Shown in pieces: positions 1 through 38,006 of a DNA stretch of 38,006 nt. Origin of the DNA: a virus. Taxonomy: Duplodnaviria > Heunggongvirae > Uroviricota > Caudoviricetes. Under the pieces are notes generated by a model, which saw only the letters and a program-made list of their open reading frames with translations, had not been told where the DNA came from and ran no database searches. Numbering within the stretch: position 1 is the stretch's first letter; each line of letters opens with the position of its first letter. The stretch spans positions 1 through 38,006 of the IMG/VR virus record IMGVR_UViG_2778261277_000017, one strand, 5' to 3'. Position numbers and translations under genes: made by a program.

Positions 1-1164
1 TTACACATCATTAGTACCTTCCTTATTTTTTGACTGGGACAAATTTGGGACCGATGGGTTCAGAATCGAGTCTATTTGCCGTGCGTGTTCGGTAAGGTGA
101 TTAGGCGCGAGGTGAGCATATCGACGAACCATTTCGATAGACTCCCAGCCACCCATTTCCTGTAACACTGACAACGGGACTCCGGCTTGAACCAGCCAAC
201 TTGCCCAGGTGTGTCTCAAGTCGTGAAATCTGAAATCATCAATACCAGCCCGTCTCAGCGCCGTTTTCCAGGCTGTGTTTGCGTCATACCGCATCTTCCT
301 TACTGTTGGCGCTTTCGTTCCGTCTGGTTTGGTACAGCTTTCCTTGTACACAAATACCCAACGGTGATGATTCCCGATTTGTTTTTTCAATACGCGACAT
401 GCAGTATCATTCAGCGCAACGCCAATTGCGCGGTTTGATTTACTCTCTTCCGGGTTTATCCATGCCACCCGGCGCTGCATATCTATTTGTTGCCATTCAA
501 GGTTGATGATGTTCGAGCGTCTTAAGCCTGTTGCCAGTGCAAATTCAACAACAGACTTTAATGGCTCCGGACATTCATCAATCAGCCTTTGTGCTTCATG
601 GGGCTCCAGCCAGCGGATCCGTTTATTCTTTGGTTGAGGCACTTTAATAATTGGTGCCTTATCCAGCATTTTCCATTCACGCTCTGCGGCTCTTAGTAGG
701 GCCTTTATAAATGAAAGATGCGTAGCCTTCGTTGCAACGGACGCTGGTTTTGGCGTGTATTCTGGAACAGGTTTCCCTTTTTTTCTGCATGCTTCTGCCC
801 TGAGTTTCCAGTTTTCCTCATGACGCCGGTTCGTCATTTTCTGCATTGCTGAATAAATTTTTGATTCAGTAATGTCTCTTAGTTGCATCCCTGCGAAATG
901 TTGAAGCCAGAATCCGATCCGGCTTTTGTCATCGTCCAGTGATTTCTTATGTGCTTTCTCTTCGAGCCACCTGACACACGCTTCCTCAAACGTCATATCA
1001 GGTATTTCACCAAGTTTGCTGACCCGCCATGCTTCAGCCTTTAGCTTGTCATGGAGCTCTGTCGCCTGCCTTTTGTCCTTTGTTCCAAGAGACTGTTTAA
1101 ATCTTTTACCGTTCGGCAATGTGAAACTGGCGTACCATATTTCACTTCTGCGGAAGAGTGACAT
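1..1164 (-). CDS. int: Tyrosine integrase (site-specific recombinase), not lambda-type; resembles e14/phage-21-group integrases from memory
   Basis: 387-aa ORF with C-terminal R..HDLRHT..Y-type catalytic region ([17 protein letters not shown]). Excisionase-like gene overlaps its 5' end. Stop codon is at bases 1-3. Confidence 0.9.
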
Positions 1165-1391
1165 TTTCTTTCCTCTGTTATGCCATCACCCGCGCTCACC
1201 TTGATAGTATGCAGCGGAGACTGAAGCGCCGCAATGCAGGCTTGTCGCGTTGTGAGGTAAGGAGATTTTGGTTTAGTGGGGTCTTTGCGTGTTGCCTGTA
1301 GGCGGCCTGTTCGTATCCAGTTGGTGGCGGTTGGTCTGGATATCTTAAGAAACTGACAGGCCTCATCGAGTGTGAGGCTGTATGATTCCAT
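1041..1391 (-). CDS. xis: Excisionase-like small HTH protein overlapping the int start
   Basis: ATG at 1391 preceded by AGAGGT Shine-Dalgarno; translation [31 protein letters not shown] has an excisionase-type HTH. Overlaps int by about 120 nt; the true C-terminus is uncertain. Confidence 0.6.
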
Positions 1392-1688
1392 GGTTACCTC
1401 TGCTTTTTGAACGCATGTCACGTAACTTCTTAATGTGTTCTGCCGTTTCGATCTCTTCTGCTATCCGATCTGCATCAGCTTTATTCACAGGTTCAAAGTC
1501 ATGATTAAAGCGGAACATGCTGGCGATACATGTTCTGCCTTTTCGGATGTAGTGAACTTTGTTGTGGGTAGAACGCAGGATTTTGCAGGGAGTGCCGTGG
1601 TGGTCGACGTACCAGGTGTTAGGAAAAATGATTCTGAATATTTTTACACCTCAGTTGGACGATGTTGAAATTTGCTGCTTTGAGGCCA

Positions 1689-1907
1689 TCACAATCCCCA
1701 TTGTTTGTTCTTAAGTTCGATCTCCTCCTGGCAACTTGCACAAGTCCGACAACCCTGAACGGCCAGGCGTCTTCGTTCATCTATGGGATCGCCACACTCA
1801 CAACAATGAGTGGCAGATATAACCTGGTGGTTCAGACGACGCATTTTTATTGCTGTATTGCGCTGTAATTCTTCGATTTCTGATGCTGAATCAATGATGT
1901 CTGCCAT
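1689..1907 (-). CDS. TraR/DksA-family C4 zinc-finger protein (lambda Orf73-like)
   Basis: 72-aa ORF with CCECGDPIDERRRLAVQGCRTCASCQ, the Cys4 motif characteristic of TraR/DksA C-terminal zinc fingers. Confidence 0.75.
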   Translation of the reverse strand: MADIIDSASEIEELQRNTAIKMRRLNHQVISATHCCECGDPIDERRRLAVQGCRTCASCQEEIELKNKQWGL

Positions 1908-2005
1908 CTTCCATTAATCCCTGAATTGTTGGTTAATACGCTTGAGGGTGAATGCGAATAATAAAAAAGGAGCCTGTAGCTCCCTGATGATTTTGCTTTT
2001 CATGT

Positions 2006-2287
2006 TCACCGTTCCTTAAAGACGCCGTTCAACATGCCGATCGCCAGGCTTAAATGAGTCGGTGTGAATCCCATCAGCGTTACCGTTTCGCGGTGCTTCT
2101 TTAGTACGCTACGGCAAATGTCATCGACGTTTTTATCCGGAAAATGCTGTCTGGCTTTTTTGATTTCAGAATTAGCCTGACGGGCAATGCTGCGAAGGGC
2201 GTTTTCTTGCTGAGGTGTCATTGAACAAGCCCCATGTCGGCAAGCATAAGCACACAGAATATGAAGCCCGCTGCCAGAAAAATGCAT
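2006..2287 (-). CDS. Small Cys/His-rich early protein, Ea8.5-like by size and position
   Basis: 93-aa ORF in the xis-to-exo interval. N-terminal Cys/His cluster (HILCAYACRHGAC). No obvious Shine-Dalgarno; an alternative ATG lies at 2221. Confidence 0.45.
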   Translation of the reverse strand: MHFSGSGLHILCAYACRHGACSMTPQQENALRSIARQANSEIKKARQHFPDKNVDDICRSVLKKHRETVTLMGFTPTHLSLAIGMLNGVFKER

Positions 2288-2297
2288 TCAGTGGTTG

Positions 2298-2489
2298 TCA
2301 TACCTGGTCTCTCTCATCTGCTTCTACTTTCGCCACCATCATTTCCAGCTTTTGTGAAAGGGATGTGGCTAACGTATGAAATTCTTCGTCTGTTTCTACT
2401 GGTATTGGCACAAACCTGACTCCAATTTGAGCAAGGCTATGTGCCATCTCAATACTCGTTCTTAACTCAACAGGAGATGCTTTGTGCAT
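2298..2489 (-). CDS. Lambda orf63-like small protein
   Basis: 63-aa ORF overlapping the next gene by 28 nt, the same spacing as recalled for lambda orf63/orf60a. Confidence 0.55.
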   Translation of the reverse strand: MHKASPVELRTSIEMAHSLAQIGVRFVPIPVETDEEFHTLATSLSQKLEMMVAKVEADERDQV

Positions 2490-2644
2490 ACCGCCTCCCG
2501 TTTATTATTTATCTTCTCAGCCAGCCGCTGTGCTTTCAGTGGATTTCTGATAACAGAAAGGCCGGGAAATACCCAGCCTCGCTTTGTAACGGAGTAGACG
2601 AAAGTGATCGCGCCTACCCGGATATTATCGTGAGGATGCGTCAT
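2462..2644 (-). CDS. Lambda orf60a-like small protein
   Basis: 60-aa ORF from the second ATG; overlaps the exo stop by 4 nt as in lambda. Confidence 0.55.
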
Positions 2645-3321
2645 CGCCATTGCTCCCCAAATACAAAACCAATTTCAGCCAGTGCCTCGTCCATTTTTTC
2701 GATGAACTCCGGCACCATCTCGTCAAAACTCGCCATGTACTTTTCATTCCGCTCAATCACGACATAATGCAGGCCTTCACGCTTCATGCGCGGGTCATAG
2801 TTGGCAAAGTACCAGGCATCTTTTCGCGTCACCCACATGCTGTACTGCACCTGGGCCATGTAAGCCGATTTTATTGCCTCGAAACCACCGAGCCGGAATT
2901 TCATGAAATCCCGGGAGGTAAACGGGCATTTCAGTTCAAGGCCGTTGCCGTCACTGCATAAACCATCGGGAGAGCAGGCAGTGCGCATATTTTCGTCGCG
3001 ATAGATGATCGGGGATTCAGTAACATTCACGCCGGAAGTGAATTCAAACAGGGTTCTGGCGTCGTTCTCGTACTGTTTTCCCCAGGCCAGCGCCTTAGCA
3101 TTAACTTCCGGAGCCACACCGGTGCAAACCTCAGCCAGCAGGGTGTGGAAGTAGGACATTTTCATGTCAGGCCACTTCTTTCCTGAGCGGGGCTTTGCTA
3201 TCACGTTGTGAACTTCTGAAGCGGTGATGACGCCGAGCCGTAATTTGTGCCATGCATCATCCCCCTGTTCGACAGCTCTCACGTCGATCCCGGTACGCTG
3301 CAGGATAATGTCCGGTATCAT
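2641..3321 (-). CDS. exo: Lambda exonuclease (Red alpha)
   Basis: 226-aa translation reads as lambda Exo along its length ([50 protein letters not shown] ... [11 protein letters not shown]). Confidence 0.95.
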
Positions 3322-4103
3322 GCTGCCACCTTCTGCTCAGTGGCTTTCTGTTTCAGGAATCCAAGAGCTTTCACTGCTTCGGCCTGTGTCAGTTCTGACG
3401 ATGCGCGAATGTCGCGGCGAAATATCTGGGAACAGAGCGGCAATAAGTCGTCATCCCATGTTTTATCCAGGGCGATCAGCAGAGTGTTAATCTCCTGCAT
3501 GGTTTCATCGTTAACCGGAGTGATGTCGCGTTCTGGCTGACGTTCTGCAGTGTATGCAGTATTTTCGACAATGCGCTCGGCTTCATCCTTGTCATAGATA
3601 CCAGCAAATCCGAAGGCCAGACGGGCACACTGAATCATGGCTTTATGCCGTAACATCCGTTTGGGATGCGACTGCCACGGCCCCGTGATTTCTCTGCCTT
3701 CGCGAGTTTTGAATGGTTCGCGGCGGCATTCATCCATCCATTCGGTAACGCAGATCGGATGATTACGGTCCTTGCGGTAAATCCGGCATGTACAGGATTC
3801 ATTGTCCTGCTCAAAGTCCATGCCATCAAACTGCTGGTTTTCATTGATGATGCGGGACCAGCCATCAACGCCCACCACCGGAACGATGCCGTTCTGCTTA
3901 TCAGGGAAGGCGTAAATTTCTTTCGTCCACGGATTAAGGCCGTACTGGTTGGCGACGATCAACAATGCGATGAACTGCGCATCGCTGGCATCACCTTTAA
4001 ATGCCGTCTGGCGAAGAGTGGTGATCAGTTCCTGTGGGTCGACAGAATCCATGCCGACACGTTCAGCCAGCTTCCCTGCCAGCGTTGCGAGTGCTGTACT
4101 CAT
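3318..4103 (-). CDS. bet: Lambda Beta single-strand annealing protein (Red beta)
   Basis: 261-aa translation matches recalled lambda Bet ([66 protein letters not shown]...). ATGA overlap with exo. Confidence 0.95.
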
Positions 4104-4108
4104 CCGTT

Positions 4109-4525
4109 TTATACCTCTGAATCAATATCAACTTGGTGGTGAGCAATGGTTTCAACCATGTACCGGATGTGTTCTGCCATGCGCTCCTGAAACTCAACAT
4201 CGTCATCAAACGCACGGGTAATGGCTTTTTTGCTGGCCCCGTGGCGTTGCAAATGATCGATGCATAGCGATTCAAACAGGTGCTGGGGCAGGCCTTTTTC
4301 CATGTCGTCTGCCAGTTCTGCCTCTTTCTCTTCACGGGCGATCTGCTGGTAATGACGCGTCCAGCTCTGAGCCTCAAGACGATCCTGAATGTAATAAGCG
4401 TTCATGGCTGAACTCCTGAAATAGCTGTGAAAATATCGCCCGCGAAATGCCGGGCTGATTAGGAAAACAGGAAAGGGGGTTAGTGAATGCTTTTGCTTGA
4501 TCTCAGTTTCAGTATTAATATCCAT
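4109..4525 (-). CDS. gam: Lambda Gam (RecBCD inhibitor)
   Basis: 138-aa translation matches recalled lambda Gam ([55 protein letters not shown]...). Confidence 0.95.
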
Positions 4526-4623
4526 TTTTTATAAGCGTCGACGGCCTCACGAAACATCTTTTCATCGCCAATAAAAGTGGCGATAGTGAATTTAGTCTGG
4601 ATAGCCATAAGTGTTTGATCCAT
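4480..4623 (-). CDS. kil: Kil (FtsZ inhibitor), lambda-type
   Basis: 47-aa [50 protein letters not shown] from the ATG at 4623. Overlaps gam and cIII as in lambda. Confidence 0.85.
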
Positions 4624-4756
4624 TTTTTGGGACTCCTGGCTGATTAAGTATGTCGATAAGGCGTTTCCATCCGTCACGTAATTTACGGGTGATTCGTTCA
4701 AGTAAAGATTCGGAAGGGCAGCCAGCAACAGGCCACCCTGCAATGGCATATTGCAT
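4592..4756 (-). CDS. cIII: cIII (FtsH/HflB inhibitor), lambda-type
   Basis: Reverse-complement translation from 4756 gives [54 protein letters not shown] (54 aa). Below the 60-aa ORF-track cutoff, found by hand. Confidence 0.9.
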   Translation of the reverse strand: MQYAIAGWPVAGCPSESLLERITRKLRDGWKRLIDILNQPGVPKNGSNTYGYPD

Positions 4757-4828
4757 GGTGTGCTCCTTATTTATACATAACGAAAAACGCCTCGAGTGAA
4801 GCGTTATTGGTATGCGGTAACGCCGCGC

Positions 4829-5197
4829 TCAGGCGGCTTTGATAGTCATATCATCTGAATCAAATATTCCTGATGTATCGATATCGGTAATTCTTATTCC
4901 TTCGCTACCATCCATTGGAGGCCATCCTTCCTGACCATTTCCATCATTCCAGTCGAACTCACACACAACACCATATGCATTTAAGTCGCTTGAAATTGCT
5001 ATAAGCAGAGCATGTTGCGCCAGCATGATTAATACAGCATTTAATACAGAGCCGTGTTTATTGAGTCGGTATTCAGAGTCTGACCAGAAATTATTAATCT
5101 GGTGAAGTTTTTCCTCTGTCATTACGTCATGGTCGATTTCAATTTCTATTGATGCTTTCCAGTCGTAATCAATGATGTATTTTTTGATGTTTGACAT
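4829..5197 (-). CDS. ea10: Ea10-like early protein (lambda ea10)
   Basis: 122-aa acidic ORF (MSNIKKYIIDYDWKASIEIEIDHDVMTEEKLHQINNFW...) at the position of lambda ea10, upstream of cIII in the pL operon. Confidence 0.8.
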   Translation of the reverse strand: MSNIKKYIIDYDWKASIEIEIDHDVMTEEKLHQINNFWSDSEYRLNKHGSVLNAVLIMLAQHALLIAISSDLNAYGVVCEFDWNDGNGQEGWPPMDGSEGIRITDIDTSGIFDSDDMTIKAA

Positions 5198-5212
5198 CTA
5201 TTCATATCCTCA

Positions 5213-5243
5213 CAGATAAAAAATCGCCCTCACATTGGAGGGC
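5213..5243 (-). terminator. Rho-independent terminator-like hairpin upstream of ea10 (minus strand)
   Basis: GCCCTC / GAGGGC 6-bp stem with 6-nt loop at 5226-5243, followed on the minus strand by GATTTTTTAT. Confidence 0.45.
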
Positions 5244-5361
5244 AAAGAAGATTTCCAATAATCAGAACAAGTCGGCTCCTGTTTAGTTACGAGCGACATT
5301 GCTCAGTGTATTCACTCGTTGGAATGAATACACAGTGCAGTGTTTATTCTGTTGTTTATGC

Positions 5362-5387
5362 CAAAAATAAAGGCCGACTATGCGGCC
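5362..5387 (-). terminator. Rho-independent terminator immediately after the 207-aa gene (minus strand)
   Basis: GGCCG / CGGCC hairpin at 5372-5387 followed on the minus strand by TTTATTTTTGG; overlaps the stop codon of the 207-aa gene. Confidence 0.5.
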
Positions 5388-6001
5388 TCGGAAGGAAGTC
5401 CAATCATCTTATTCAAATCTTCTACCCGTAAAGCAGGAAGTGCTGTACTTGCTTTATCTGCTTCTTTTGGTAGCAACTCTTTGCTTTCAGGCCAAACCTC
5501 AATAAGTCGCTTAACTGTTGTGACTGAGTTTAAAGCAGCCCATACATTTGATTCGATATCCTTTTTCTTTGCTTCAAGTTTTTGTTGTAATGAGCAGATT
5601 TCATCAAACCTTTTTGTTATTTCGTGCTCTGCGTCAAACATGCATTTATCTTTTGTCGGAGTAGGGAGCAATATATCTTCGCCGTTGCCGTCTTTCCCAT
5701 ATGAATGCCATCCAACCCTTCTGCCAGATACAGTCAGATAAATTGAAGTAGAATGAACATCGTATGAGTAAAATGAACATCCCATCTTTCCAAGTTCTTC
5801 ACTTATAGCTACCAACTTGGATGATAACTGATCCACTTCCTCAGTTTTCTTTTTACCGCCAAACGCAATAACTCTGGCGTCAAGTGCAAGCTGGTTCTTT
5901 AACTTTGTTACTTCTTCAAGTTCAGTGAAAACCCCAGACTTAATTAAAGCGTTACGAGCGATTTCCTCTTTCATTCTCGTAGTTAAGCGGATTGATGACA
6001 T
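5378..6001 (-). CDS. Hypothetical 207-aa protein immediately downstream of N, where lambda carries sieB/ral; function unknown
   Basis: ATG at 6001 preceded by GAGAGGAATTAAT Shine-Dalgarno. Hydrophilic, largely helical-looking sequence (MSSIRLTTRMKEEIARNALIKSG...). AT-rich compared with flanking lambda genes. No recognisable lambda Ral sequence present. Confidence 0.6.
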   Translation of the reverse strand: MSSIRLTTRMKEEIARNALIKSGVFTELEEVTKLKNQLALDARVIAFGGKKKTEEVDQLSSKLVAISEELGKMGCSFYSYDVHSTSIYLTVSGRRVGWHSYGKDGNGEDILLPTPTKDKCMFDAEHEITKRFDEICSLQQKLEAKKKDIESNVWAALNSVTTVKRLIEVWPESKELLPKEADKASTALPALRVEDLNKMIGLPSEAA

Positions 6002-6012
6002 ATTAATTCCTC

Positions 6013-6339
6013 TCAAATAAGTGGTTTGCTGCCTAATTTCATTTTCTGGCGGCCTGAACAAGTCACACCCATTTCACTGCGTGGCTTGCTGTACCATGTG
6101 CGCTGATTCTTGCGCTCAATACGTTGCAGGTTGCTTTCAATCTGTTCGTGGTATTCAGCCAGCACCGTAAGGTCTATCGGATTCAGTGCGCTTTCTACTC
6201 GTGATTTCGGTTTGCGATTCAGCGAGAGAATAGGGCGGTTAACTGGTTTTGCGCTTACCCCAACCAACAGGGGATTTGCTGCTTTCCATTGAGCCTGTTT
6301 CTCTGCGCGACGTTCGCGGCGGCGTGTTTGTGCATCCAT
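6013..6339 (-). CDS. N: Antiterminator N (lambda-type, divergent C-terminus)
   Basis: MDAQTRRRERRAEKQAQWKAANPLLVGVSAKPVNRPILSLNRKPKSRVESALNPIDLTVLAEYH... is the lambda N arginine-rich motif and core; the last ~25 residues differ from my recollection of lambda N. Confidence 0.9.
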   Translation of the reverse strand: MDAQTRRRERRAEKQAQWKAANPLLVGVSAKPVNRPILSLNRKPKSRVESALNPIDLTVLAEYHEQIESNLQRIERKNQRTWYSKPRSEMGVTCSGRQKMKLGSKPLI

Positions 6340-6537
6340 CTGGATTCTCCTGTCAGTTAGCTTTGGTGATTGGATGGCCGGCGCTGAACCCCGGCTTACT
6401 GGTTAGAGCGCCCGCACTACCAGTGACGCTGTCTTGAGGCGCAGATTGGTTACTGCTTGCCATGAGCGCTGTTTATACATTGGTCGAGCATCAGCCTGCT
6501 CATTCATCCAATCCCAAAGCCTTCTGCTTTGAATGCT

Positions 6538-6569
6538 ACCCTTCTTCAGGGCTTAATTTTTAAGAGCGT
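6538..6569 (-). promoter_or_regulatory. nutL (boxA + boxB) N-utilisation site
   Basis: Minus-strand reading CGCTCTTAAAAATTAAGCCCTGAAGAAGGGT: boxA CGCTCTTA and boxB hairpin GCCCT-GAAGA-AGGG, in the N leader. Confidence 0.8.
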
Positions 6570-6607
6570 CACCTTCATGGTGGTCAGTGCGTCCTGCTGA
6601 TGTGCTT

Positions 6608-6670
6608 AGTATCACCGCCAGTGGTATTTATGTCAACACCGCCAGAGATAATTTATCACCGCAGATGGTT
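6608..6670 (-). promoter_or_regulatory. oL1-oL2-oL3 operators with pL promoter (lambda immunity)
   Basis: TATCACCGCCAGTGGTA (6610-6626), CAACACCGCCAGAGATA (6634-6650), TATCACCGCAGATGGTT (6654-6670). Minus-strand -35 TTGACA (6631-6636) and -10 GATACT (6608-6613). Confidence 0.9.
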
Positions 6671-6821
6671 ATCTGTATGTTTTTTATATAGATTTATTTT
6701 TTGCAGGGTTGTGTGGATTGGGAAGGTGATCGAGAGATCTGAATTGCGATGTTTAGTGAGTTGTATCTATTAATTTTGAAATAAATACAATTGGTTATGC
6801 GTTTTTTGGGGGGCGTTAGGC

Positions 6822-6847
6822 AAAGAAAACCCGGCGCAGATGCCGGG
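6822..6847 (-). terminator. Rho-independent terminator after the 301-aa gene (end of the cI-distal transcript)
   Basis: CCCGGC-gcagat-GCCGGG hairpin (6830-6847) followed on the minus strand by TTTTCTTTG. Confidence 0.55.
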
Positions 6848-6859
6848 TTGTGGTGGAGA

Positions 6860-7765
6860 TCAATGCTTATTTGGGAGTGCTGGTTTTTTTATCGACTCTA
6901 ATAGCTCGGAGGCGTTACTAATCTTTTTGTTCCCAAGGTAATTTGGCAGTTTTTCCATTGCGTAATTATCGTGTAGCCATTTTCTGAACACGCCAAGTGC
7001 CTCAATAGGATAAATCCAAGCTGTTATATGCTTATTTGCAGCTGACTGCCTGTAATTTTCGGGGAATAAATGTGGGTACTGCACCCTTTCCCCGAATTTC
7101 TCAGATAGCCCATTAGCTGTCCAATACTTTCCCCAGTGAATTCCAACACTTCCATCCAAAGATGTGGTGTCATCCATTGGGAATCCTCCTCCGATCAGGT
7201 TCATGGCAATGTCAGCTATCTCTCTGAATACTGCAAAATGAGTTGTCGGTATCTGATCGTTTAGCTTAATCCTTGCTCTATAGTTCTCGAATGAGATATC
7301 TATTGAAGCATTTGGGTTGTAATTTGACTTTTCATAAATCATTCGCTTAAGCGTGTACTCAGCCAAGCGAACAAAATTACCTATTGCGACTGACCTATCA
7401 AAATTGGTGGCATCTAGAGCGTAGTAACGGAGGATAGCCATGCAAACATAGTCAGGATAAGCATGAGTTTCCACGTTTGAGCTATTTAAAACGCGAGTGT
7501 ATAGCTTTTCGACGTTATGAAACCCTTTCTCAGCTAAATACGCAGCTACTTTTTGACCTCTGGGTTTGTTTTTCTCTGTGTTCCAGTTTGATGTGAACAC
7601 CCTCAGTGGCGTGTCATCAATGCCGCATAACTTTGCGAGACCGTAGAGAGTTAGGTAAGGAGTTCCATCATTGAGAACGCCCATAGGAATATCATCAGAA
7701 ACAACCTCTACTACAGGGAAAAGCTGCATTTGATGCAGGGATTCGCTATTGCTGTTAATCGACAT
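6860..7765 (-). CDS. Hypothetical 301-aa protein in the position lambda uses for rexA-rexB (downstream of cI, before oL); candidate prophage-encoded exclusion/abortive-infection gene
   Basis: Single long ORF co-oriented with cI and followed by a terminator. AT-rich compared with cI. No similarity to RexA/RexB as I recall them; no HExxH motif, so not Lit-like. N-terminal region (LFPVVEVVSDDIPMGVLNDGTPYLTLYGLAKLCGIDD) loosely resembles Bro-N/KilA-N-type domains. Confidence 0.7.
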   Translation of the reverse strand: MSINSNSESLHQMQLFPVVEVVSDDIPMGVLNDGTPYLTLYGLAKLCGIDDTPLRVFTSNWNTEKNKPRGQKVAAYLAEKGFHNVEKLYTRVLNSSNVETHAYPDYVCMAILRYYALDATNFDRSVAIGNFVRLAEYTLKRMIYEKSNYNPNASIDISFENYRARIKLNDQIPTTHFAVFREIADIAMNLIGGGFPMDDTTSLDGSVGIHWGKYWTANGLSEKFGERVQYPHLFPENYRQSAANKHITAWIYPIEALGVFRKWLHDNYAMEKLPNYLGNKKISNASELLESIKKPALPNKH

Positions 7766-7851
7766 ATCTTAATGATTTCCTTATTTTTATTGTAGGGATC
7801 TTCTTTTTTATTTCCTACATCTAGATGCGTATAAAGTCTCTTGCTGCGGAC

Positions 7852-8568
<717 letters not shown>

Positions 8569-8575
8569 TTAAATC

Positions 8576-8640: not shown

Positions 8641-8656
8641 TAGTTGCATGTACTAA

Positions 8657-8866
<210 letters not shown>

Positions 8867-8873
8867 ATAACCC

Positions 8874-30952: not shown

Positions 30953-30954
30953 GC

Positions 30955-32022
30955 ATGTCACAGAACTGGATGAGACATTTCGAGCTGCAGCTTGTGGACG
31001 GGAACGGTCAGGGAATTGAGCTAAGTGATTTCAAAGTCACCTTTACGATCGACTGGTTCAACATCAGCAGCGCGTCCCGGGTAGGGACTATCAAAATTTA
31101 TAACCTTTCGGCAGATACTGTGAACCGAATTACCGGGCAGGAGTTTTCGAAAGTGCGGCTGATTGCCGGTTACGACGGTATCGCGCCGGAGGTGGCGGCA
31201 AGCGACGTCGGGACCGTGCGCGAAGTCGACGCGGCAGATGTGGGCCAGAGTGATGGCCGCAACTACGGGCTGATTTTCAGCGGAGAAATTCGCTACTCGG
31301 TCACAGGAAAAGACAGCCCTATTGATTCCTATGTCCTGATTCAGGCAGCAGATACGGATCTGGCATTTGCCACCAGTATAACCTCGCAGACGCTGGCGGC
31401 CGGTTACACGGTCGCAGATGTGAACCGTGCGCTGATGAAAGACTTTGAGGCCAAAGGCGCGACCGAAGGACTGACGCCTGAAATGCCTGCTACCGTATTC
31501 CCTCGAGGGCGGGTGCTGTTCGGCATGACACTGCATCTTATGGATAACGTGGCCGGACAATGTGGCGCAACATGGCAATTTGTGGACGGTCAGCGCCAGA
31601 TGGTGGCGAATAACGAGTATGTTCACGACGCGATTGTGCTCAACAGCGCCACCGGGCTTATCGGCATGCCGCAGCAGACTATCGGCAACGGTGTAAACGT
31701 CCGCGCTCTTATTAATCCGAACATCCGGGTTAACGGGCTTATTCAGCTGGATCAGGCTTCCGTGTACCGCACCGCGCTGTCGAACAATGATATTGCGATG
31801 GCTGGTGGGCAGATCACCGACCAGAACACGGACGGAAATATCACGCTCAGCGGCACCACAGCACAACCTGCCAGCATCGCAACGGATGGCGTTTATATTG
31901 TGCGCGGGATTATGTACACTGGCGATACAAGGGGCCAGGCGTGGTACATGGATATGATGTGCGAAGCGCGTGGCGCGGCGGATCTTCGTTCTGCGTCGTC
32001 TTTACAGCGTGAGGTAGGATAG
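30955..32022 (+). CDS. Baseplate hub-like protein
   Basis: 355-aa ORF following the tape measure-proximal genes. Confidence 0.5.
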   Translation: MSQNWMRHFELQLVDGNGQGIELSDFKVTFTIDWFNISSASRVGTIKIYNLSADTVNRITGQEFSKVRLIAGYDGIAPEVAASDVGTVREVDAADVGQSDGRNYGLIFSGEIRYSVTGKDSPIDSYVLIQAADTDLAFATSITSQTLAAGYTVADVNRALMKDFEAKGATEGLTPEMPATVFPRGRVLFGMTLHLMDNVAGQCGATWQFVDGQRQMVANNEYVHDAIVLNSATGLIGMPQQTIGNGVNVRALINPNIRVNGLIQLDQASVYRTALSNNDIAMAGGQITDQNTDGNITLSGTTAQPASIATDGVYIVRGIMYTGDTRGQAWYMDMMCEARGAADLRSASSLQREVG

Positions 32023-32375
32023 TGAAAAAGTGGATTGTTATCGGACTCTGTTTCCTTCCGGGGTTAGCATTTGCTGCGAATCCTGGCGGTATCACGCTTC
32101 AGTGTGGTGGCTACAAATTAGAGTTGATTCCTGATTCATTGTTCAGGATTAATGGTGAGACAGTTACCTCTCAGAAAATCAAAACGCTCGGCAACGGTAA
32201 TGGAATGAAGGCGGATATGGGTCTTATGCCAGCCAAAGACGGTAACAATTACGCTTTCGAGTTCATTCGTCGCCCTGGTACCGAAACGCGTTTCCTGAAC
32301 GTCCAGCTTCTGCAGAACAGCATGGATGCACCGAAAATCATCGGCTCCTTCCCGTGTAAAAAGGTTGATGGTTAA
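32022..32375 (+). CDS. Small secreted protein with Sec signal peptide, embedded in the baseplate module
   Basis: MKKWIVIGLCFLPGLAFA|ANPGG: n-region, hydrophobic core and AxA cleavage motif; no lipobox Cys. 117 aa. Lower GC than flanking tail genes. Confidence 0.6.
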   Translation: MKKWIVIGLCFLPGLAFAANPGGITLQCGGYKLELIPDSLFRINGETVTSQKIKTLGNGNGMKADMGLMPAKDGNNYAFEFIRRPGTETRFLNVQLLQNSMDAPKIIGSFPCKKVDG

Positions 32376-32515
32376 CCAAAAGTTACATTTCTGCATAGTG
32401 TTGAGTTTGTTCACATTCACTAAATAATGATTTTTTATCGCTTGCTAGGTGGTTGCATGATCACTAAACTTTGCGAACTTTTAGCGCTCAGCTAACTTTG
32501 AATAAGTGGTGTATA

Positions 32516-32530
32516 GTCGTTTAAAACGAC
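32516..32530 (+). promoter_or_regulatory. Palindromic candidate operator overlapping a -10-like TATAGT upstream of the 190-aa gene
   Basis: GTCGTTT-A-AAACGAC perfect 7-bp inverted repeat; TATAGT at 32512-32517; about 14 nt upstream of the AGAGGGA Shine-Dalgarno of the next gene. Confidence 0.4.
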
Positions 32531-32543
32531 AGAGGGATTGGGT

Positions 32544-33116
32544 ATGGCGATTAGCTACGCATTTGCGCTGGCAACAATTACACAACAAATGAATCAGGTT
32601 CAGGAAGCTGTTAACGGTGCTTTCAAACCCCTGATCTCTAATGCTTGTGAACTGCCACAACGATTAGATGCTGAAGAGGTATTTCGTCGTTGTACCGCGA
32701 TTGCTGCACGCGCTCAAGAAATCGAAAATACCGCGAAGGAAGGCATGTCTCATCTCGAAGCTTTTCGAAATGGGAGAATCATTGTTGATGAGCTTCCGGA
32801 AGAGTTTTTATCCCATCTCGAAGGTCTTGCCAAGGCATGCCGAAATGCTAAAGGACATTTAGTGGATATGTTCTCTGAAGCGGAAAGGTCCCCTATGTGG
32901 CAAGGCCATCTGCAAATGTTGCGCCCATTAAAACGCAAATATGTTCGTGCGTTGACCGCCGTCGAGAACACTGCAACTCAGTTGGCCGCTGAAGTTAGGC
33001 AATCGCAGCCTTTCCAGGCTGAACTCTTGTCAGATAATGTTACCCGTGAAGAGGCTATTGAACTGATCTCAACATCGCATAAGATGCTGGGAGCCAACGC
33101 CCCTAAATGGATGTGA
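32544..33116 (+). CDS. Hypothetical 190-aa helical protein, upstream partner of the YafO-like gene (candidate antitoxin/regulator of a novel type)
   Basis: ATG at 32544 with AGAGGGA Shine-Dalgarno; 1-nt gap to the downstream gene. Far larger than, and unlike, the Phd/YefM-type antitoxin YafN that partners YafO in E. coli. Confidence 0.6.
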   Translation: MAISYAFALATITQQMNQVQEAVNGAFKPLISNACELPQRLDAEEVFRRCTAIAARAQEIENTAKEGMSHLEAFRNGRIIVDELPEEFLSHLEGLAKACRNAKGHLVDMFSEAERSPMWQGHLQMLRPLKRKYVRALTAVENTATQLAAEVRQSQPFQAELLSDNVTREEAIELISTSHKMLGANAPKWM

Positions 33117-33117
33117 C

Positions 33118-33534
33118 ATGGCAAAAGTCAGTATCACGGGAGAATTGCGTCATTTAGCTGCAGCACATAAGTATGCTCAAATGCTTGCCGATTATATTTC
33201 AAAGGGTTCCCAGTTCTGGTGTTTTGGTTCGTTAGGCGGTTTTGAACGTAACTATGATGCGATGGCTGCCAACATCAGGAAAATTCACTTAAAGCTACCT
33301 GGCGATAAACCCTGGCCTCCAGAAGCATCTCTGAGTGAACGGACATGTGATAATTTTTTGGTATATGCTCAGCATCTTTATATCGATGAACACTATCAGA
33401 TATTGGCAATCATCAGCCCAAACGCTCATCAGCAAGCTGATTCGATGCTTCCCCGGCTGATAAAATTAGCAGAGGAAACCTTCATAGAACTTCCTCCTGA
33501 TGAACTCGAAAAATTGAAAACCTACGATTCATAA
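33118..33534 (+). CDS. YafO-family toxin-like protein (ribosome-dependent mRNA interferase family), tentative
   Basis: 138-aa ORF. Segments ADYISKG, KIHLKLPGDKPWPP, FLVYAQHLYIDEHYQILAIISPNAH and RLIKLAEETF align with what I recall of E. coli YafO (ADFISYK, HIHLANENNPFPP, HLVYCQGAFDEQAWLLIAILKPEPH, KIGKMAEAF). Recall-based, unverified. Confidence 0.6.
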   Translation: MAKVSITGELRHLAAAHKYAQMLADYISKGSQFWCFGSLGGFERNYDAMAANIRKIHLKLPGDKPWPPEASLSERTCDNFLVYAQHLYIDEHYQILAIISPNAHQQADSMLPRLIKLAEETFIELPPDELEKLKTYDS

Positions 33535-33535
33535 A

Positions 33536-33557
33536 CCCGCCACCCGGCGGGTTTTTT
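33536..33557 (+). terminator. Strong rho-independent terminator closing the cargo cassette
   Basis: CCCGCC-ACCC-GGCGGG hairpin followed by TTTTTT, directly after the stop codon at 33534. Confidence 0.8.
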
Positions 33558-33576
33558 GCTTTCTGGAGCCTACTAA

Positions 33577-34329
33577 ATGGCAGTATCTGACCAGACCCGC
33601 AGCGGCGACCTTGCCGAAACATTCAAATCTGAACGGGAAACAACAAAGAATCAGATCCGTGTCGCCTTGCCTGGCATTATTCAGTCATTCGATCCTGATG
33701 CGGTGACGGCGGTTGTGCAGCCTGCTATCCGTTCGGTTGAAAAGGATAATGACGGCAACCGCATTACCAAAAATTACCCATTGTTGGTGGATGTTCCAGT
33801 GGTATTCCCACGTGGCGGAGGATGTACGCTAACGTTTCCGATTAAAGCCGGGGATGAGTGTCTTGTCGTTTTTGCCGATCGTTGTATTGATTTCTGGTGG
33901 CAGAGCGGCGGAATACAGGAACCGGTCGATGACAGAATGCATGATTTATCGGATGCGTTTTGTATTGTAGGCCCCCAGTCGCAGGCGAGGAAGATTAGCG
34001 GTATTAATACCAGTGCCACACAGTTGCGTAGTGACGATGGCAGCACCTATTTTGAGCTTAATCCTGATACCAGGAAAATTAAAATTGTCGCTCCGGGTGG
34101 TCTTGATGTGGTTGCCCCTCTGGCTGATTTTTCTGAGAAAGTAACCATTCATGGCCTGTTAACCTGGATGGGGGGCATGGTGGGGTCTGTTGTTTCTGGT
34201 GTGGCTTCAAAAATCACTGGTGTTGTTGAGTTTTTGGGTAGCGTGAAGGCTAACGGCAAGCCAATCGATGATACGCACACTCATGGCGGTGTTCAGCGCG
34301 GTGGAAGCAATACCGATGGGGTAAACTGA
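33577..34329 (+). CDS. Baseplate spike / gpV-like protein
   Basis: 250-aa ORF with GGAG Shine-Dalgarno; Gly-rich C-terminus (THTHGGVQRGGSNT) typical of gpV-like spike proteins. Confidence 0.55.
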   Translation: MAVSDQTRSGDLAETFKSERETTKNQIRVALPGIIQSFDPDAVTAVVQPAIRSVEKDNDGNRITKNYPLLVDVPVVFPRGGGCTLTFPIKAGDECLVVFADRCIDFWWQSGGIQEPVDDRMHDLSDAFCIVGPQSQARKISGINTSATQLRSDDGSTYFELNPDTRKIKIVAPGGLDVVAPLADFSEKVTIHGLLTWMGGMVGSVVSGVASKITGVVEFLGSVKANGKPIDDTHTHGGVQRGGSNTDGVN

Positions 34330-34682
34330 TGCGATACAGACGTGAAGACGCCGATGGCGATTACACCTTTGGCAGCGGTGATGACACCTGGCTGATTAAC
34401 TCACCGGAGGCCGTGGCGCAGGCGGTAAAAACGCGATTCGAATTGTGGTATGGGCAATGGTTTCTCGACACCACCGAGGGGACTCCGTGGATCCAGTCCG
34501 TACTCGGTAAGCAGAAGCCGGAAACCTACAACCTGGCGATCCGTAAGCGCATCCTCGAAACGCGGGGCGTTAAATCAATCCTCTCTTTCAATACGACGGT
34601 GGATACCACGACCCGACGTGTCATGTTTTCCGCTGAAATCGACACTCTTTATGGAATAACGACTGTTACATCGGAGGCGTAA
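34329..34682 (+). CDS. Baseplate wedge protein (gpW/gp25-like)
   Basis: 117-aa ORF, ATGA-coupled after the spike gene; size and position typical. Confidence 0.5.
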   Translation: MRYRREDADGDYTFGSGDDTWLINSPEAVAQAVKTRFELWYGQWFLDTTEGTPWIQSVLGKQKPETYNLAIRKRILETRGVKSILSFNTTVDTTTRRVMFSAEIDTLYGITTVTSEA

Positions 34683-35881
34683 TGGCTCTGAACCTTGATT
34701 CTCTCGGTTTATCTGCAAAGGTAACCGCGGAGGGGATCAGTGCGCCTGATTATCAGACGATACTCAGCACCCTGATTAGCTATTTTCAGCAGATTTATGG
34801 CAGTGATGCCTACCTCGAACCGGACAGCAAAGACGGCCAGATGGTGGCTCTGATGGCGCTGGCGATTCATGATGCCAATAATACGGCGATAACTGTCTAC
34901 AACTGTTTTTCACCGGCAACCGGCTATGGGGCTGCACTGACCAGTAACGTGAAAATAAATGGTATTTCACGTAAAGGCGCGACGAACTCTACGGTTGATT
35001 TGCTTCTTACAGGAACTGCCGGAACAACCATCATTAATGGCAGCGTGAAAGACAGTAATAATGTGATATGGCGTTTGCCTGCTTCAGTGGTGGTCGGCGT
35101 GGATGGTACAGTGATGGTGACCGCAACATGTTCCGTCAGTGGTGCAGTGGCGGCGCTGGCTGGAACTATCACTGAAATTAATACGCCAACCCGTGGCTGG
35201 GTTTCGGTAACCAATCCTGCTGCAGCTACTGTAGGCACTCCAGCAGAAACTGATGCGGAGTTACGTATCCGCCAGTCGCAAAGTGTTGCGTTGCCATCAA
35301 TAACCCCATTTGAAGCACTGGATGGTGCCGTTTCTAATGTTACCGGTGTAACCCGCCACAAACTCTATGAAAACGATACTGGTTCGGAGGACGGTAACGG
35401 GTTACCGCCACACTCTGTTGCTGTAATTGTGGATGGCGGTGATGTGACGGATATTGCTCAGGCTATCAGAGGGAATAAAGGTCAGGGGACAGCCACTCAC
35501 GGTACAACATCCGTTACGGTTCCGGATAAATACGGCAATCCCCATGTAATCAAATTCTCGCGTTCCAGTGATGTACCTGTTTATGCCCGGATTAAATTAA
35601 AAGTTTTTACGGGTTATACCTCACAGATAGGGCAACAGATCCAGCAGGCTATTTCCGACTATATCAATAGTCTGATGATTGGTGATTCGGTCCTTTTAAG
35701 TCGCATTTACTCACCGGCGAATCTTGGCGTGGTGAGTGGCGGGAATGCACGCTATTACGATATTCAGGAACTGACGATTGGGAAATCCCCGGGGGCTTTG
35801 TCGTCATCAAACATTGATATCAGATACAACGAATCTGCGTCCTGTACCCCGGAAAATATCGTTATAACGGTGGAGTCATGA
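34682..35881 (+). CDS. Baseplate J-like protein
   Basis: 399-aa ORF following the gpW-like gene, as in P2/Mu-type baseplate clusters. Confidence 0.55.
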   Translation: MALNLDSLGLSAKVTAEGISAPDYQTILSTLISYFQQIYGSDAYLEPDSKDGQMVALMALAIHDANNTAITVYNCFSPATGYGAALTSNVKINGISRKGATNSTVDLLLTGTAGTTIINGSVKDSNNVIWRLPASVVVGVDGTVMVTATCSVSGAVAALAGTITEINTPTRGWVSVTNPAAATVGTPAETDAELRIRQSQSVALPSITPFEALDGAVSNVTGVTRHKLYENDTGSEDGNGLPPHSVAVIVDGGDVTDIAQAIRGNKGQGTATHGTTSVTVPDKYGNPHVIKFSRSSDVPVYARIKLKVFTGYTSQIGQQIQQAISDYINSLMIGDSVLLSRIYSPANLGVVSGGNARYYDIQELTIGKSPGALSSSNIDIRYNESASCTPENIVITVES

Positions 35882-36558
35882 GCAAATACACCGAACTAAT
35901 CACGAACTACCACGCCACCAAACCTAAATTTCTTGCGCATGTTGATCTGATGACCCGGCCACTTATTGATGTTGCGGCTGCCACCAGAGGGCTGATTACT
36001 GCATTTGATATTGACTCTGCGGTTGGTGTGCAACTTGACATTCTTGGATTGTGGATCGGACGTAGCCGTGTTGTCAGCCAGCCTATCTCAGGTGTCTATT
36101 TCAGCTGGGATACCGACGGGCTTGGATATGATCAGGGTGTATGGCAGGGGCCATACGATCCTGATTCCGGATACATGTACCTCAGCGATGAAACTTATCG
36201 TGTCATCCTTAAAGCGAAGATTGCGATTAATAACTGGGATGGACGGAATGATTCGCTTCCGGCAATTCTTGACGCGGCGACAGCAGGATCCGGACTGCGA
36301 ATGCAGATAGTCGATAACCAGGACATGACGATATCGGTCTGGGTCTTTCCTGATACTGATATTTCAGATGTATCGCGTGAGTTAATTGCTGCAATTAAAC
36401 AGGGATATCTCACAGTAAAAGCCGCCGGTGTGTGGGCGGGTGGCATTGAAACACCTTCGGTGGAAACCCCATCGGAAGGTTCAAAATTTTTTGGTTTTGA
36501 TATGGATAACGAATTCATCAGTGGTTTTGATGTAGGGGCATGGGGAGTATTACTCTGA
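35878..36558 (+). CDS. Tail protein (gpI-like)
   Basis: 226-aa ORF, ATGA-coupled, immediately upstream of the tail fibre gene. Confidence 0.5.
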
Positions 36559-37253
36559 TGGCGAAAAATGACTTTAAAGCGTTTGCAACGGATCGAAATG
36601 CCAATGTTATGTCGCAGGAGGAATGGGAAGCGTTGCCTGCGCTTTTATCCGGATTTACAGCAGGGAAAGCATCCAGTGCGCAAGTCAATAAGGTTATTCG
36701 GCAGGCCAGCTTTATTGCTGCAGCTCTGGCCCAGTTTGTAAGTGACAAAACGCAACGGGATGTGCTTGATAATGGTGATCTGCCCGGTTTTGTTGAATTG
36801 CTGGGATCGGGGTTTGCTGTTGAATACCTGAGCCGCAAGAATCCGTTTGGTGATATCAAATCGGATGGCACGGTGAAAACGGCTCTCGAAAACCTTGGTT
36901 TGGGAGAAGCGGCGAAAAGGGATGTGGGCACAGGAGATAATCAGATACCGGATATGGGAGCATTCGCTTCTGGTTCGGGATGGTTCAGGCTACCAGGTGG
37001 ATATATTGTTCAGTTTGGCACTTTTGCAGGAAACACGACCCGCTTTATCAGTGGACACTTCCCTATACCATTCCCTAATCAGCCGATGGTTTCAGTCAGT
37101 GTTATGTCTGATGCCGTTCAGTCAGACCCGTCGATTCCTGCCCCGCAGGTTTTGTCTGTAAATTTTGAACATATCAGTAATTCAGCGTGGCGTGTGGCAA
37201 CCAGTGATATCTCACAGCAATACAGATTCAGTTATATTTCGATAGGACGGTAG
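36558..37253 (+). CDS. Tail fibre protein, with a constant N-terminal part and a C-terminal part lying in a putative invertible segment
   Basis: N-terminus [29 protein letters not shown]... is typical of side tail fibre proteins; followed by a Tfa gene; contains the hix-like site at 36883-36908. Confidence 0.75.
36883..36908. other. Candidate Hin/Gin/Pin/Cin-family DNA invertase crossover site (hix/gix-like, 26 bp)
   Basis: CTCTCGAAAACC-TT-GGTTTGGGAGAA: 12-bp imperfect inverted half-sites around a 2-bp core, close to the recalled hixL/gixL pattern (TTnTCnAAAACC nn GGTTTnGAnAA). Lies inside the tail fibre gene. Confidence 0.55.
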
Positions 37254-37255
37254 AA

Positions 37256-37696
37256 ATGCAGAAATATATTTTCAGTGCCGATAAAAATGCGTTTTTCCCT
37301 GTGGAGCTTAAAATCGCTTATCAGGAATCCGGCGAATGGCCCGATGATGGAATCGAAATTGACGACACTGTTGCTGCCGAATTTATGAAGGAAGCACCAG
37401 AAGGAAAATACAGAGGTGTCATCGACGGAATGCCTGCATGGATTGATATTCCACCGCCAACTCATGAGGAACAAATTGCCGCAGCCGAACTGAAAAAGCA
37501 GCAATTGATTAATCAGGTCAACGAATACATAAACAGTAAGCAATGGCCTGGTAAAGCGGCGATTGGTCGCCTGAAAGGTGAGGAACTGGTGCAATATAAT
37601 TTGTGGCTGGATTATCTGGACGCACTGGAACTGGTCGATACTTCCGGTGCGCCAGATATTGAATGGCCTACGCCTCCGGCAGTTCAGGCCAGATGA
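37256..37696 (+). CDS. tfa: Tail fibre assembly protein (Tfa)
   Basis: 146-aa ORF with conserved Tfa N-terminus (MQKYIFSADKNAFFPVELKIAYQESGEWPDDGIEIDD) and C-terminal ...DIEWPTPPAVQ. Confidence 0.85.
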   Translation: MQKYIFSADKNAFFPVELKIAYQESGEWPDDGIEIDDTVAAEFMKEAPEGKYRGVIDGMPAWIDIPPPTHEEQIAAAELKKQQLINQVNEYINSKQWPGKAAIGRLKGEELVQYNLWLDYLDALELVDTSGAPDIEWPTPPAVQAR

Positions 37697-38006
37697 CATC
37701 CGGTGCGGTGCTGGTATCTGTTGCCGTCACCGCGTCAATATAATCCAGCACAGCGTTAAGTCGGGTGTTTTCTGGCTGCGTCAGCTTCCGCCCGGCCTGT
37801 AATTTCAGTTGAATCAGACCGATGGAAGCCATTGCAGCATCAATCAGCGACTGGCGCTTTACTTCTGCCGCGTCTAGTGCGGCGCTATGCTGTGCCTCGG
37901 TATCCGTCACCCATTTCTCACTATCCCATTTATCGTATGGCGTTAATGGGGCGATAGTGGTTGTATTTTCAGGGTAATCACCCGGAACTGTGATTTCTTT
38001 GGTATC
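37668..38006 (-). CDS. Second, oppositely oriented tail fibre assembly protein (alternative Tfa of an invertible segment); 5' end beyond the window
   Basis: Minus-strand frame open to the window edge, ending ...LDYIDAVTATDTSTAPDVIWPELPEA, parallel to the plus-strand Tfa C-terminus; the two 3' ends overlap by 29 nt. Confidence 0.7.
   Translation of the reverse strand, partial: DTKEITVPGDYPENTTTIAPLTPYDKWDSEKWVTDTEAQHSAALDAAEVKRQSLIDAAMASIGLIQLKLQAGRKLTQPENTRLNAVLDYIDAVTATDTSTAPDVIWPELPEA

Follow-up and report, generated by a model that had tools for sequence, protein, structure and literature searches.

A SEN34-type lambdoid prophage with a contractile-tail virion module, predicted to insert at the thrW tRNA gene

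The 38,006 nucleotides (nt) of the Caudoviricetes record IMGVR_UViG_2778261277_000017 of IMG/VR, hereafter the window, carry genes whose relatives lie in several different phages, and this raises the question of what kind of element they represent and whether their combination is out of the ordinary. An earlier note on this DNA had described an unusual mosaic, in which lambda immunity and early-left genes, phage-21-type lysis genes and a non-lambda replication set are joined to Mu/P2-like virion genes and invertible fibres. The comparisons presented here indicate that the window is very probably one nearly complete temperate E. coli prophage, whose sequence starts here at the stop codon of the integrase and breaks off midway through the fibre inversion segment, in which a lambdoid control backbone carries a SEN34-type contractile-tail virion module, the whole being a product of ordinary module exchange.

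The window spans from the stop codon of a minus-strand tyrosine integrase gene to the interior of a minus-strand tfa gene, and its gene directions are those of lambda, leftward to the left of cI and rightward from cro onward. The complete lambdoid gene plan is present (int-xis, recombination, N, cI-cro, cII, replication, nin, Q, lysis and virion), as are the antitermination sites for N and Q. This gene order, together with nutL, nutR, OL, OR, the Q-binding element and the terminator tR', places the element among the lambdoid phages.

A near-identical prophage was found in the chromosome of Escherichia coli STEC1587 (NZ_CP129259.1, about 3,873,000-3,909,800), collinear with the window over 36,361 of its 38,006 nt (95.7%) at 98.5% identity. 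The match begins 14 nt past the tRNA-Thr gene thrW, downstream of proA; the 46-nt attP core of phage SfI, ATTCGTAATGCGAAGGTCGTAGGTTCGACTCCTATTATCGGCACCA, lies within this tRNA-Thr gene and ends 14 nt to the left of the position equivalent to the window start. Positions 1-15665 are collinear at 99.64%, with 8 differences within 1-15264, and 16203-36898 align at 97.81%, leaving unaligned only 15666-16202, which holds a DUF6979 gene, and 36899-38006, the variable part of the fibre. Both prophages have the same integrase, lambda immunity, bstA, Nmad5-family gene, DnaB replication set, Q21/S21/R21, structural genes and orf192/YafO cassette, whereas that of STEC1587 lacks the DUF6979 gene, has an intact ninI and carries a fibre gene truncated after the crossover site. 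It is annotated but undescribed, and bears no phage name. Divergent patches lie at 19000-21000 and 31400-32300; in the first of them, identity to STEC1587 falls to 75-93% over the portal C-terminus and the head-morphogenesis gene, against 98-100% around them, which would fit a short tract of recombination inside the head genes.

Two further searches place the window among its relatives. When both window halves were compared by megablast with 50,697 phage records, the left half had its best hits in SfI, phi458, Stx2 phages and lambda, and the right half in vB_EcoM-611R5 with its siblings and in Salmonella phage SEN34. Among 5,426 complete E. coli genomes, the first 25 kb are covered at 98% in one, STEC1587, while the late region (14000-38006) is covered to at least 80% in 62. 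In addition, the exact YafO-like protein of the window is indexed in 2,846 public-collection blocks, and all eight of the contexts listed lie in this tail module. The patchwork described by the earlier note is therefore real, but, given the near-identical thrW prophage, the 62 genomes, the spread of the YafO-like protein and the published SEN34, the word unusual finds no support.

SEN34 (Brunovirus SEN34, NC_028699) has been isolated and forms plaques; electron microscopy showed its tail to be contractile, and its early region resembles that of lambda. Its description in 2017 presented a lambda-like genome combined with the morphology of a myovirus, and made the phage prototype of a new lambda cluster (PMC5261728). 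Like the window, it has a lambdoid early region (exo-bet-gam, cII, O, ninB, ninG, Q and S-R-Rz) followed by a collinear terminase-to-fibre myovirus module. In total, 19,666 nt align at about 80-82%, and from terL to the DUF2612 gene, the cassette excepted, all 27 of 27 proteins match at 65-96% amino acid (aa) identity. On the contrary, SEN34 has its own integrase, immunity, O/P replication set, Q and lysis genes, lacks a fibre inversion segment, and carries other small genes between hub and spike. The International Committee on Taxonomy of Viruses unites in one genus phages whose genomes, taken as a whole, are about 70% or more identical in nucleotides. Between SEN34 and the window, 52% of the window can be aligned, at about 80%, which gives about 42% overall, so that the window, judged by this overall identity, falls outside the SEN34 genus, Brunovirus, even though it has a SEN34-type morphogenesis module.

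The same virion module occurs on a different backbone. The Escherichia phages vB_EcoM-611R5, 606R2, 683R1 and 689R2 share the structural module at 92-98% over 16992-36909, as well as the fibre inversion segment, Din-type crossover sites and invertase, but they combine it with an unrelated early region that is not lambdoid and encodes a DNA polymerase, a helicase and a TIR-like protein (611R5 1-15400). This suggests that the virion module is exchanged as a unit between phage backbones.

The G+C fraction of the window is higher in the structural genes (about 0.53) than in the early half (about 0.47), and the stretch 16175-16991 has no match in any of the eight named phages compared. Both facts would suit two adjacent elements meeting within the window, or a chimeric assembly, with a lambdoid remnant beside an unrelated myovirus prophage. 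Nonetheless, the same Rz-to-terS junction and gene order are found in the complete chromosomes of STEC1587 and SM107 and in the isolated phage SEN34, and this idea is rejected on that ground. Moreover, there is a single integrase, no internal att core was found in the window, and one string of co-oriented genes, with Q and the late promoter at its upstream end, continues to the fibre. A join of two elements is accordingly very improbable, and the reading as one prophage is retained.

The virion genes from terminase to baseplate wedge are as follows:
16614 or 16629 to 17180, plus strand: terminase small subunit, terS (Terminase_2, E=8.5e-40)
17183-18805, plus strand: terminase large subunit, terL (100% aa to 611R5, 96% to SEN34)
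18805-20271, plus strand: portal (Phage_portal_3)
20078 or 20288 to 20896, plus strand: Mu F-like head morphogenesis protein (Phage_Mu_F)
20911-22131, plus strand: DUF2213 gene
22135-22641, plus strand: cement protein (XM1_gp53/Phage_cement)
22653-23594, plus strand: major capsid protein (PF09950; matches Pam3 8hdt, E=9e-19)
from 23635, plus strand: STY1053-like and DUF4054 connector genes, opening the head-tail connector block 23635-25841
24373-24927, plus strand: Neck1/tail completion protein
24914-25303, plus strand: head protein of the connector block
25293-25841, plus strand: neck terminator
25845-26990, plus strand: tail sheath (DUF3383; XM1 gp6 7kh1, E=5e-40; Pam3 8hdr)
27001-27441, plus strand: tail tube (KPP10_Orf10)
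27445-27897, plus strand: assembly chaperone (Phage_TAC_15)
between chaperone and tape measure, plus strand: DUF6889 gene
28054 or 28075 to 30063, plus strand: tape measure with lytic transglycosylase (PGAP name)
30063-30650, plus strand: Dit-like protein (Dit_like)
30650-30952, plus strand: plug (Pam3_gp18)
30955-32022, plus strand: hub (E217_GP41, a weak match below the cut-off)
32022-32375, plus strand: orf117, with a signal-peptide-like N-terminus in its translation, MKKWIVIGLCFLPGLAFAANPG
33577-34329, plus strand: spike (GpV apex motif)
34329-34682, plus strand: sheath initiator/gpW-like protein
34682-35881, plus strand: baseplate J (Baseplate_J, PF04865)
35878-36558, plus strand: wedge protein DUF2612 (Wedge1)

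A minus-strand open reading frame at 16580-17005 was set aside as antisense to terS, since terS carries a strong Terminase_2 domain. Just upstream of the orf192/YafO cassette, orf117 has only about 60% local DNA identity to STEC1587, with flanks at 98%.

Sheath, tube, hub, spike, baseplate J and wedge genes are thus all present, and the baseplate-bearing tail noticed earlier is borne out. Its assignment to Mu/P2-like phages is another matter. On that account, the structural half would be a Mu/P2-like (SfV-type) myovirus module attached to lambdoid early genes, as is the case in the Shigella phages SfV and SfI, and several features do point that way: Phage_Mu_F in the head-morphogenesis protein, PF04865 in baseplate J, the GpV apex motif in the spike, and an integrase and Q-lysis region that are SfI-like. 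However, blastn gave no nucleotide match of the window to Mu or P2, and when the structural proteins were compared with both phages by tblastn (E at most 1e-3) the sole match was baseplate J, 25% identical to Mu gp47; in the structural region of SfI, the only match is a stretch of 126 nt around the fibre crossover site. The families differ as well, the portal being Phage_portal_3 (Portal_Mu in Mu, Phage_portal, gpQ, in P2), the major capsid protein PF09950 (Mu-like_gpT in Mu, Phage_cap_P2 in P2) and the sheath DUF3383 (Phage_sheath_1 in both Mu and P2). What the window has in common with Mu is limited to Phage_Mu_F and Baseplate_J, and with P2 to Baseplate_J and the short GpV apex motif, so that neither a Mu-like (SfV/SfI-type) nor a P2-like virion is indicated. 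A Mu/P2-like origin is refuted at the level of protein families and retains next to no probability.

The sheath, capsid, cement, plug and hub belong instead to sequence families of the solved small myoviruses XM1 (7kh1), Pam3 (8hdr, 8hdt) and E217, although these are distant (E=1e-19 to 1e-40), infect other hosts and have non-lambdoid genomes. XM1 and Pam3 are the nearest solved relatives of the virion module, which should be annotated as SEN34/XM1/Pam3-type and not as Mu/P2-like.

If the right half is of the SEN34 type, from where does the control region derive? Its leftmost part combines integration genes like those of SfI with the early-left block of lambda:
1-1164, minus strand: tyrosine integrase of the SfI/SfV (thrW) type (99% aa to SfI Int and to the STEC1587 integrase)
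1041-1391, minus strand: xis-like helix-turn-helix gene (98-100% aa to SfI and STEC1587)
1363-1641, minus strand: DUF4222 gene (98-100% aa to SfI and STEC1587; PGAP name)
1689-1907, minus strand: TraR/DksA zinc-finger gene (98-100% aa to SfI and STEC1587; PGAP name)
from 2006, minus strand: orf61-like, orf63 and orf60a genes (98-100% aa to lambda), in the lambda early-left block 2006-5197
2641-3321, minus strand: exo, lambda type (98-100% aa)
3318-4103, minus strand: bet, lambda type (98-100% aa)
4109-4525, minus strand: gam, lambda type (98-100% aa)
4480-4623, minus strand: kil, lambda type (98-100% aa)
4592-4756, minus strand: cIII, lambda type (98-100% aa)
4829-5197, minus strand: ea10, lambda type (98-100% aa)
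5378-6001, minus strand: Nmad5-family gene in the ral/sieB position (PF18757, E=2.6e-71; G+C 0.40)

Over the int/xis region (1-2203) the window matches SfI at 98.3% nt, and 1712-5381, from orf61 to ea10, matches lambda 30418-34087 at 97.7% nt. An Rfam scan of the window returned the cIII thermoregulator at 4711-4769 and two tRNAs, and nothing else. The Nmad5-family ('nucleotide modification associated') gene has no match in lambda, 21 or SfI; it stands alone, with no partner modification genes nearby.

The immunity region follows:
6013-6339, minus strand: antiterminator N, lambda type with a variant C-terminus (92% aa; 99% nt over 6083-6368)
6537-6553: nutL (one change relative to lambda)
6610-6626, 6634-6650 and 6654-6670: OL1, OL2 and OL3 (all identical to lambda)
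6860-7765, minus strand: abortive-infection gene bstA, in the rexA-rexB position downstream of cI (PADLOC BstA, E=1.3e-105; phrog_6287, E=6e-133)
7852-8565, minus strand: cI repressor (99% aa to lambda cI)
8576-8592, 8599-8615 and 8623-8639: OR3, OR2 and OR1 (OR2 identical to lambda)
8666-8866, plus strand: cro (Cro 100% aa to lambda)
8890-8906, plus strand: nutR (identical to lambda)

Identity to lambda is 91% nt over the nutL/OL region (6513-6849) and 98.2% nt over cI-OR-cro (7852-8987). Since cI, Cro, OL and OR are all of the lambda type, the prophage is predicted to belong to the imm-lambda group, and the near-lambda character claimed earlier for exo-bet-gam-kil-cIII-N-cI-cro holds throughout. 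Members of the BstA family are encoded downstream of the prophage repressor (PMC8585504), and bstA of the window is placed likewise; its product is 42% aa identical, over the full length, to BstA of BTP1. A span of 63 nt (7737-7799) with terminal ATCCCT repeats straddles the bstA start codon with a geometry like that of BTP1 aba, but such a repeat arises in 30% of shuffles, a rate at which the candidate aba element cannot be told from a chance repeat.

Rightward of cro, the resemblance to lambda is interrupted by the replication genes and resumes in the nin region:
8985-9263, plus strand: cII-like activator (PF05269, E=3e-42; 60% aa to lambda cII)
8994-9007 (+9 to +22 of the cII-like gene): CII-site motif, at the same offset as the annotated pRE of phage 21
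9298-9459, plus strand: HK97 gp53-like small gene (phrog_1331)
9446-10267, plus strand: O-like initiator (PF04492; 42% to lambda O over the N-terminal half)
10264-11640, plus strand: DnaB-type helicase in place of lambda P (DnaB and DnaB_C domains)
11714-12154, plus strand: ninB (lambda homology 11637-12154)
12151-12333, plus strand: ninE (lambda homology 12158-13104, covering ninE-F-G)
12330-12500, plus strand: ninF (93% aa to lambda, 99% to phage 21)
12493-13104, plus strand: ninG (within the ninE-F-G homology block)
13101-13773, plus strand: ninI, a Ser/Thr phosphatase gene (lambda homology 13110-13766; +1 frameshift at 13298)

The O-like gene contains four 18-nt iterons (9785-9869) and an AT-rich repeat, and 9273-11636 is 98% identical in nucleotides to Stx2 phage 1717 (gp23-gp25, annotated there as HK97 gp53-55-like), which points to a replication module of the HK97/Stx2-1717 type and agrees with the different cII/O-like/DnaB set that had been pointed out. 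For the nin genes, the earlier note was right that ninC and ninH are missing but not that ninF is, and comparison with lambda shows ninD to be absent as well; the order is that of phage 21 (ninB-E-F-G) with ninI added.

Late control and lysis are encoded by the following elements:
13764-14252, plus strand: Q, phage 21 type (99% aa to phage 21)
14267-14282, plus strand: Q-binding element (exact copy of the annotated phage 21 element)
14296-14343, plus strand: terminator tR' (exact copy of the annotated phage 21 element)
14344-14418, plus strand: tRNA-Asn (tRNA scan, Rfam)
14424-14499, plus strand: tRNA-Thr (tRNA scan, Rfam)
14619-14834, plus strand: S21 pinholin (100% aa to phage 21)
14834-15331, plus strand: R21 SAR endolysin (95% aa to phage 21)
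15328-15771, plus strand: Rz, SfI type (92% aa to SfI, against 64% to phage 21)

From 14241 to 14630, that is, over late promoter, Q-binding element, pause element, terminator, two tRNAs and the start of S21, there is one mismatch to phage 21 in 390 nt, and the whole of 13751-16174 (Q, tRNAs, S, R, Rz and the DUF6979 gene) is of SfI and phage 21 type. Rz excepted, these genes form a late-control and lysis module of phage 21, and the S21/R21 assignment made previously is confirmed. The SAR endolysin also resembles the endolysin of Mu. CII-site motifs are not enriched window-wide (9 found, 8.5 expected from shuffles); the only meaningful ones are two at phage-21-equivalent offsets, the motif in the cII-like gene and a second inside Q, whose offset matches the annotated paQ of phage 21. 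Considering the near-exact late elements together with these two motifs, the regulatory circuit looks coherent despite its mixed origin.

Phage 21 (OL657228) and the window have in common Q, the late promoter, the Q-binding element, tR', both tRNAs, S21, R21 and the nin order ninB-E-F-G, whereas phage 21 has its own immunity region, integrase, O/P set and Rz, and lambda-like siphovirus virion genes. Lambda, for its part, shares the exo-to-ea10 block, N, nutL, OL, cI, OR, cro, nutR, ninB, ninE-F-G and ninI at 91-99% nt; the window is without lambda int/xis, ral/sieB, rexAB, cII, O, P, ren, ninC/D/H, Q, S/R and any structural gene of lambda.

At its right end, the window enters the fibre genes:
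36558-37253, plus strand: tail fibre gene (Gp53-like_C domain)
36884-36909: gix/hix-like 26-nt crossover site, TCTCGAAAACCTTGGTTTGGGAGAAG, alignable with gixL and gixR of Mu; 611R5 and SM107 have the identical site
37256-37696, plus strand: tfa, inside the invertible segment
37668-38006, minus strand: second tfa, of which the window end leaves the 3' part

The constant N-terminal part of the fibre ends at the crossover site and the variable C-terminal part follows it. A look-up of the exact fibre protein sequence returned no record. Positions 36400-36909 are collinear with 611R5, while 36890-37949 lie on its opposite strand at 97.5%, so that the segment is in the other orientation here; correspondingly, the two tfa genes match the 611R5 pair (100% and 90% aa) in swapped orientation. 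This upholds the invertible fibres of the earlier description. In 611R5 and SM107, an inverted partner site lies next to a pinE-type invertase gene at the far end of the segment, and in the window's own prophage the partner, of the approximate sequence TTTCATAAACGTTGGTTTGGGAGAAG and inverted, is expected past the window end, roughly 1.9 kb from 36884. The tfaP/tfaE genes of e14 are 89.6% identical in nucleotides to tfa of the window, and e14 shares with it only these Pin-segment tfa genes and the crossover-site block. Within 36831-36956, a block of 87-126 nt around the crossover site recurs at 92-93% identity in two fibre genes that are otherwise unrelated, the tail-fibre gene of SfI and stfP of e14; this conserved block may be a shared junction for swapping fibre ends. 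Beyond the invertase, SM107 carries about 5 kb of cargo before attR (SM107 34585-39700), comprising an HNH endonuclease, an AAA ATPase and an FRG-domain protein; the corresponding stretch of the prophage studied here falls past the window end.

Since the parts resemble characterised ones, a course of events for the prophage can be proposed by homology. The SfI-type integrase would insert it at the thrW tRNA-Thr gene, and immunity would be set by lambda cI and Cro acting on lambda operators. Early transcription would be antiterminated by the lambda-type N through nutL and nutR, the O-like initiator would bind the four iterons in its own gene, and the phage DnaB would replace lambda P. Q of phage 21, acting at the phage 21 late promoter, would drive one long late operon (tRNAs, S21, R21, Rz, terminase, head, tail and baseplate) that reads through the terminator of an embedded moron, while a Din-family invertase just beyond the window would flip a segment of about 1.9 kb and so swap the fibre C-terminus and chaperone. 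The patchwork itself would have arisen by ordinary exchange, in which lambdoid phages and co-resident prophages swap gene-bounded modules, and through no new mechanism. Of the 14 ends of lambda homology, 10 fall within 9 nt of a lambda gene boundary, and breakpoints of this kind have long been described for lambdoid phages (Juhala et al. 2000, as cited in PMC5261728). Considering that (i) the breakpoints lie at gene boundaries, in the known lambdoid pattern, and (ii) the virion module passes as a unit from one backbone to another, the window calls for no new process. Alignments against lambda, 21, e14, SfI (as SfV-like representative), Mu and P2, together with the location of the att sites by comparison with STEC1587, leave the modular ancestry proposed by the earlier note largely right.

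Several observations weigh against reading the window as one nearly complete prophage of a familiar kind. No phage record in the megablast search covers at least 80% of either window half; a single genome collinear with the whole window, which the earlier note saw as incompatible with its mosaic, is nearly provided by the STEC1587 prophage and by no named phage. The exact combination over the first 25 kb is rare, occurring in 1 of the 5,426 genomes. Both attL and attR fall outside the window, and the right crossover site and invertase lie beyond base 38006. No packaging signal was identified in the window; that of SEN34 was likewise not identified (PMC5261728). OR1 (G to A; SfI has the lambda base) and OR3 (A to G) each differ from lambda in 1 of 17 bases, and one extra C in the C run at 13298 splits ninI, intact in lambda and STEC1587, into two reading frames. 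The ninI frameshift is either a pseudogene or a homopolymer sequencing error. Activity of the prophage is only predicted, and the ninI and operator changes count against it.

With ninI frameshifted, the right end out of view and the fibre gene truncated in the STEC1587 relative, the prophage might be defective (cryptic) and no longer form particles. On the other side, the head, tail, lysis, replication and regulatory frames are full length and 95-100% identical to relatives, among them the deposited phage genome of 611R5, and ninI is dispensable in lambda. We regard a defective prophage as unlikely, and a nearly complete temperate one remains the preferred reading.

Four accessory cassettes interrupt the modules, among them the Nmad5-family gene and bstA, listed above. 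The remaining two are made up of the following features:
15810-16184, plus strand: DUF6979 gene at the lysis/packaging joint, between Rz and terS (PF22399, E=3e-29; 84% aa to SfI gp63)
32401-33554, plus strand: moron in the baseplate operon, with a promoter-like site (32401-32428) and a strong intrinsic terminator (33533-33554)
32544-33116, plus strand: orf192 (190-192 aa), of no known family
33118-33534, plus strand: YafO-like toxin (PF13957, 62.6 bits, cut-off 25)

These insertions had been said to sit at the module joints, and this is so for only one of the four, the DUF6979 gene. The Nmad5-family gene and bstA mark no joints of ancestry, since both lie between lambda-like flanks and replace known variable loci, and the orf192/YafO pair lies inside the baseplate operon. 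At 0.45, the G+C fraction of the moron is below the 0.53 of the structural genes on its left (17183-32022). Its toxin is a distant relative of YafO, as it misses the NCBIfam equivalog cut-off (31 against 153 bits), and no YafN-type (Phd/YefM) antitoxin lies upstream of it, orf192 having no Pfam, NCBIfam or PADLOC family. The pair recurs after the tape measure gene of the unrelated Flyfo siphovirus Tbat2_3 (3470-4460). At the site between hub and spike, the window and STEC1587 have this moron, while three relatives have different, unknown gene pairs (SM107 28086-29245, 611R5 32330-33174 and SEN34 15605-16276), in which Pfam and PADLOC scans found nothing. This variation makes the site a possible cargo hotspot, and we suggest, tentatively, that the gap between hub and spike is one and that the 190-aa/YafO pair is an undescribed toxin-antitoxin or anti-phage module moving between the tail operons of unrelated phages, a proposal we hold to be doubtful at this stage.

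Thus, the window is a SEN34-type lambdoid myovirus prophage at thrW, of a type that is common in E. coli and was already described for Salmonella with SEN34, and the mosaic itself holds nothing novel. It is a textbook case of lambdoid modular exchange, with little weight as a discovery. Its practical value lies in annotation, namely, the SEN34/XM1/Pam3-type label for the virion, bstA in the rexAB position and the insertion at thrW, while the YafO-like cassette and the variable site between hub and spike offer small leads for cataloguing prophage-borne defence or toxin-antitoxin genes.

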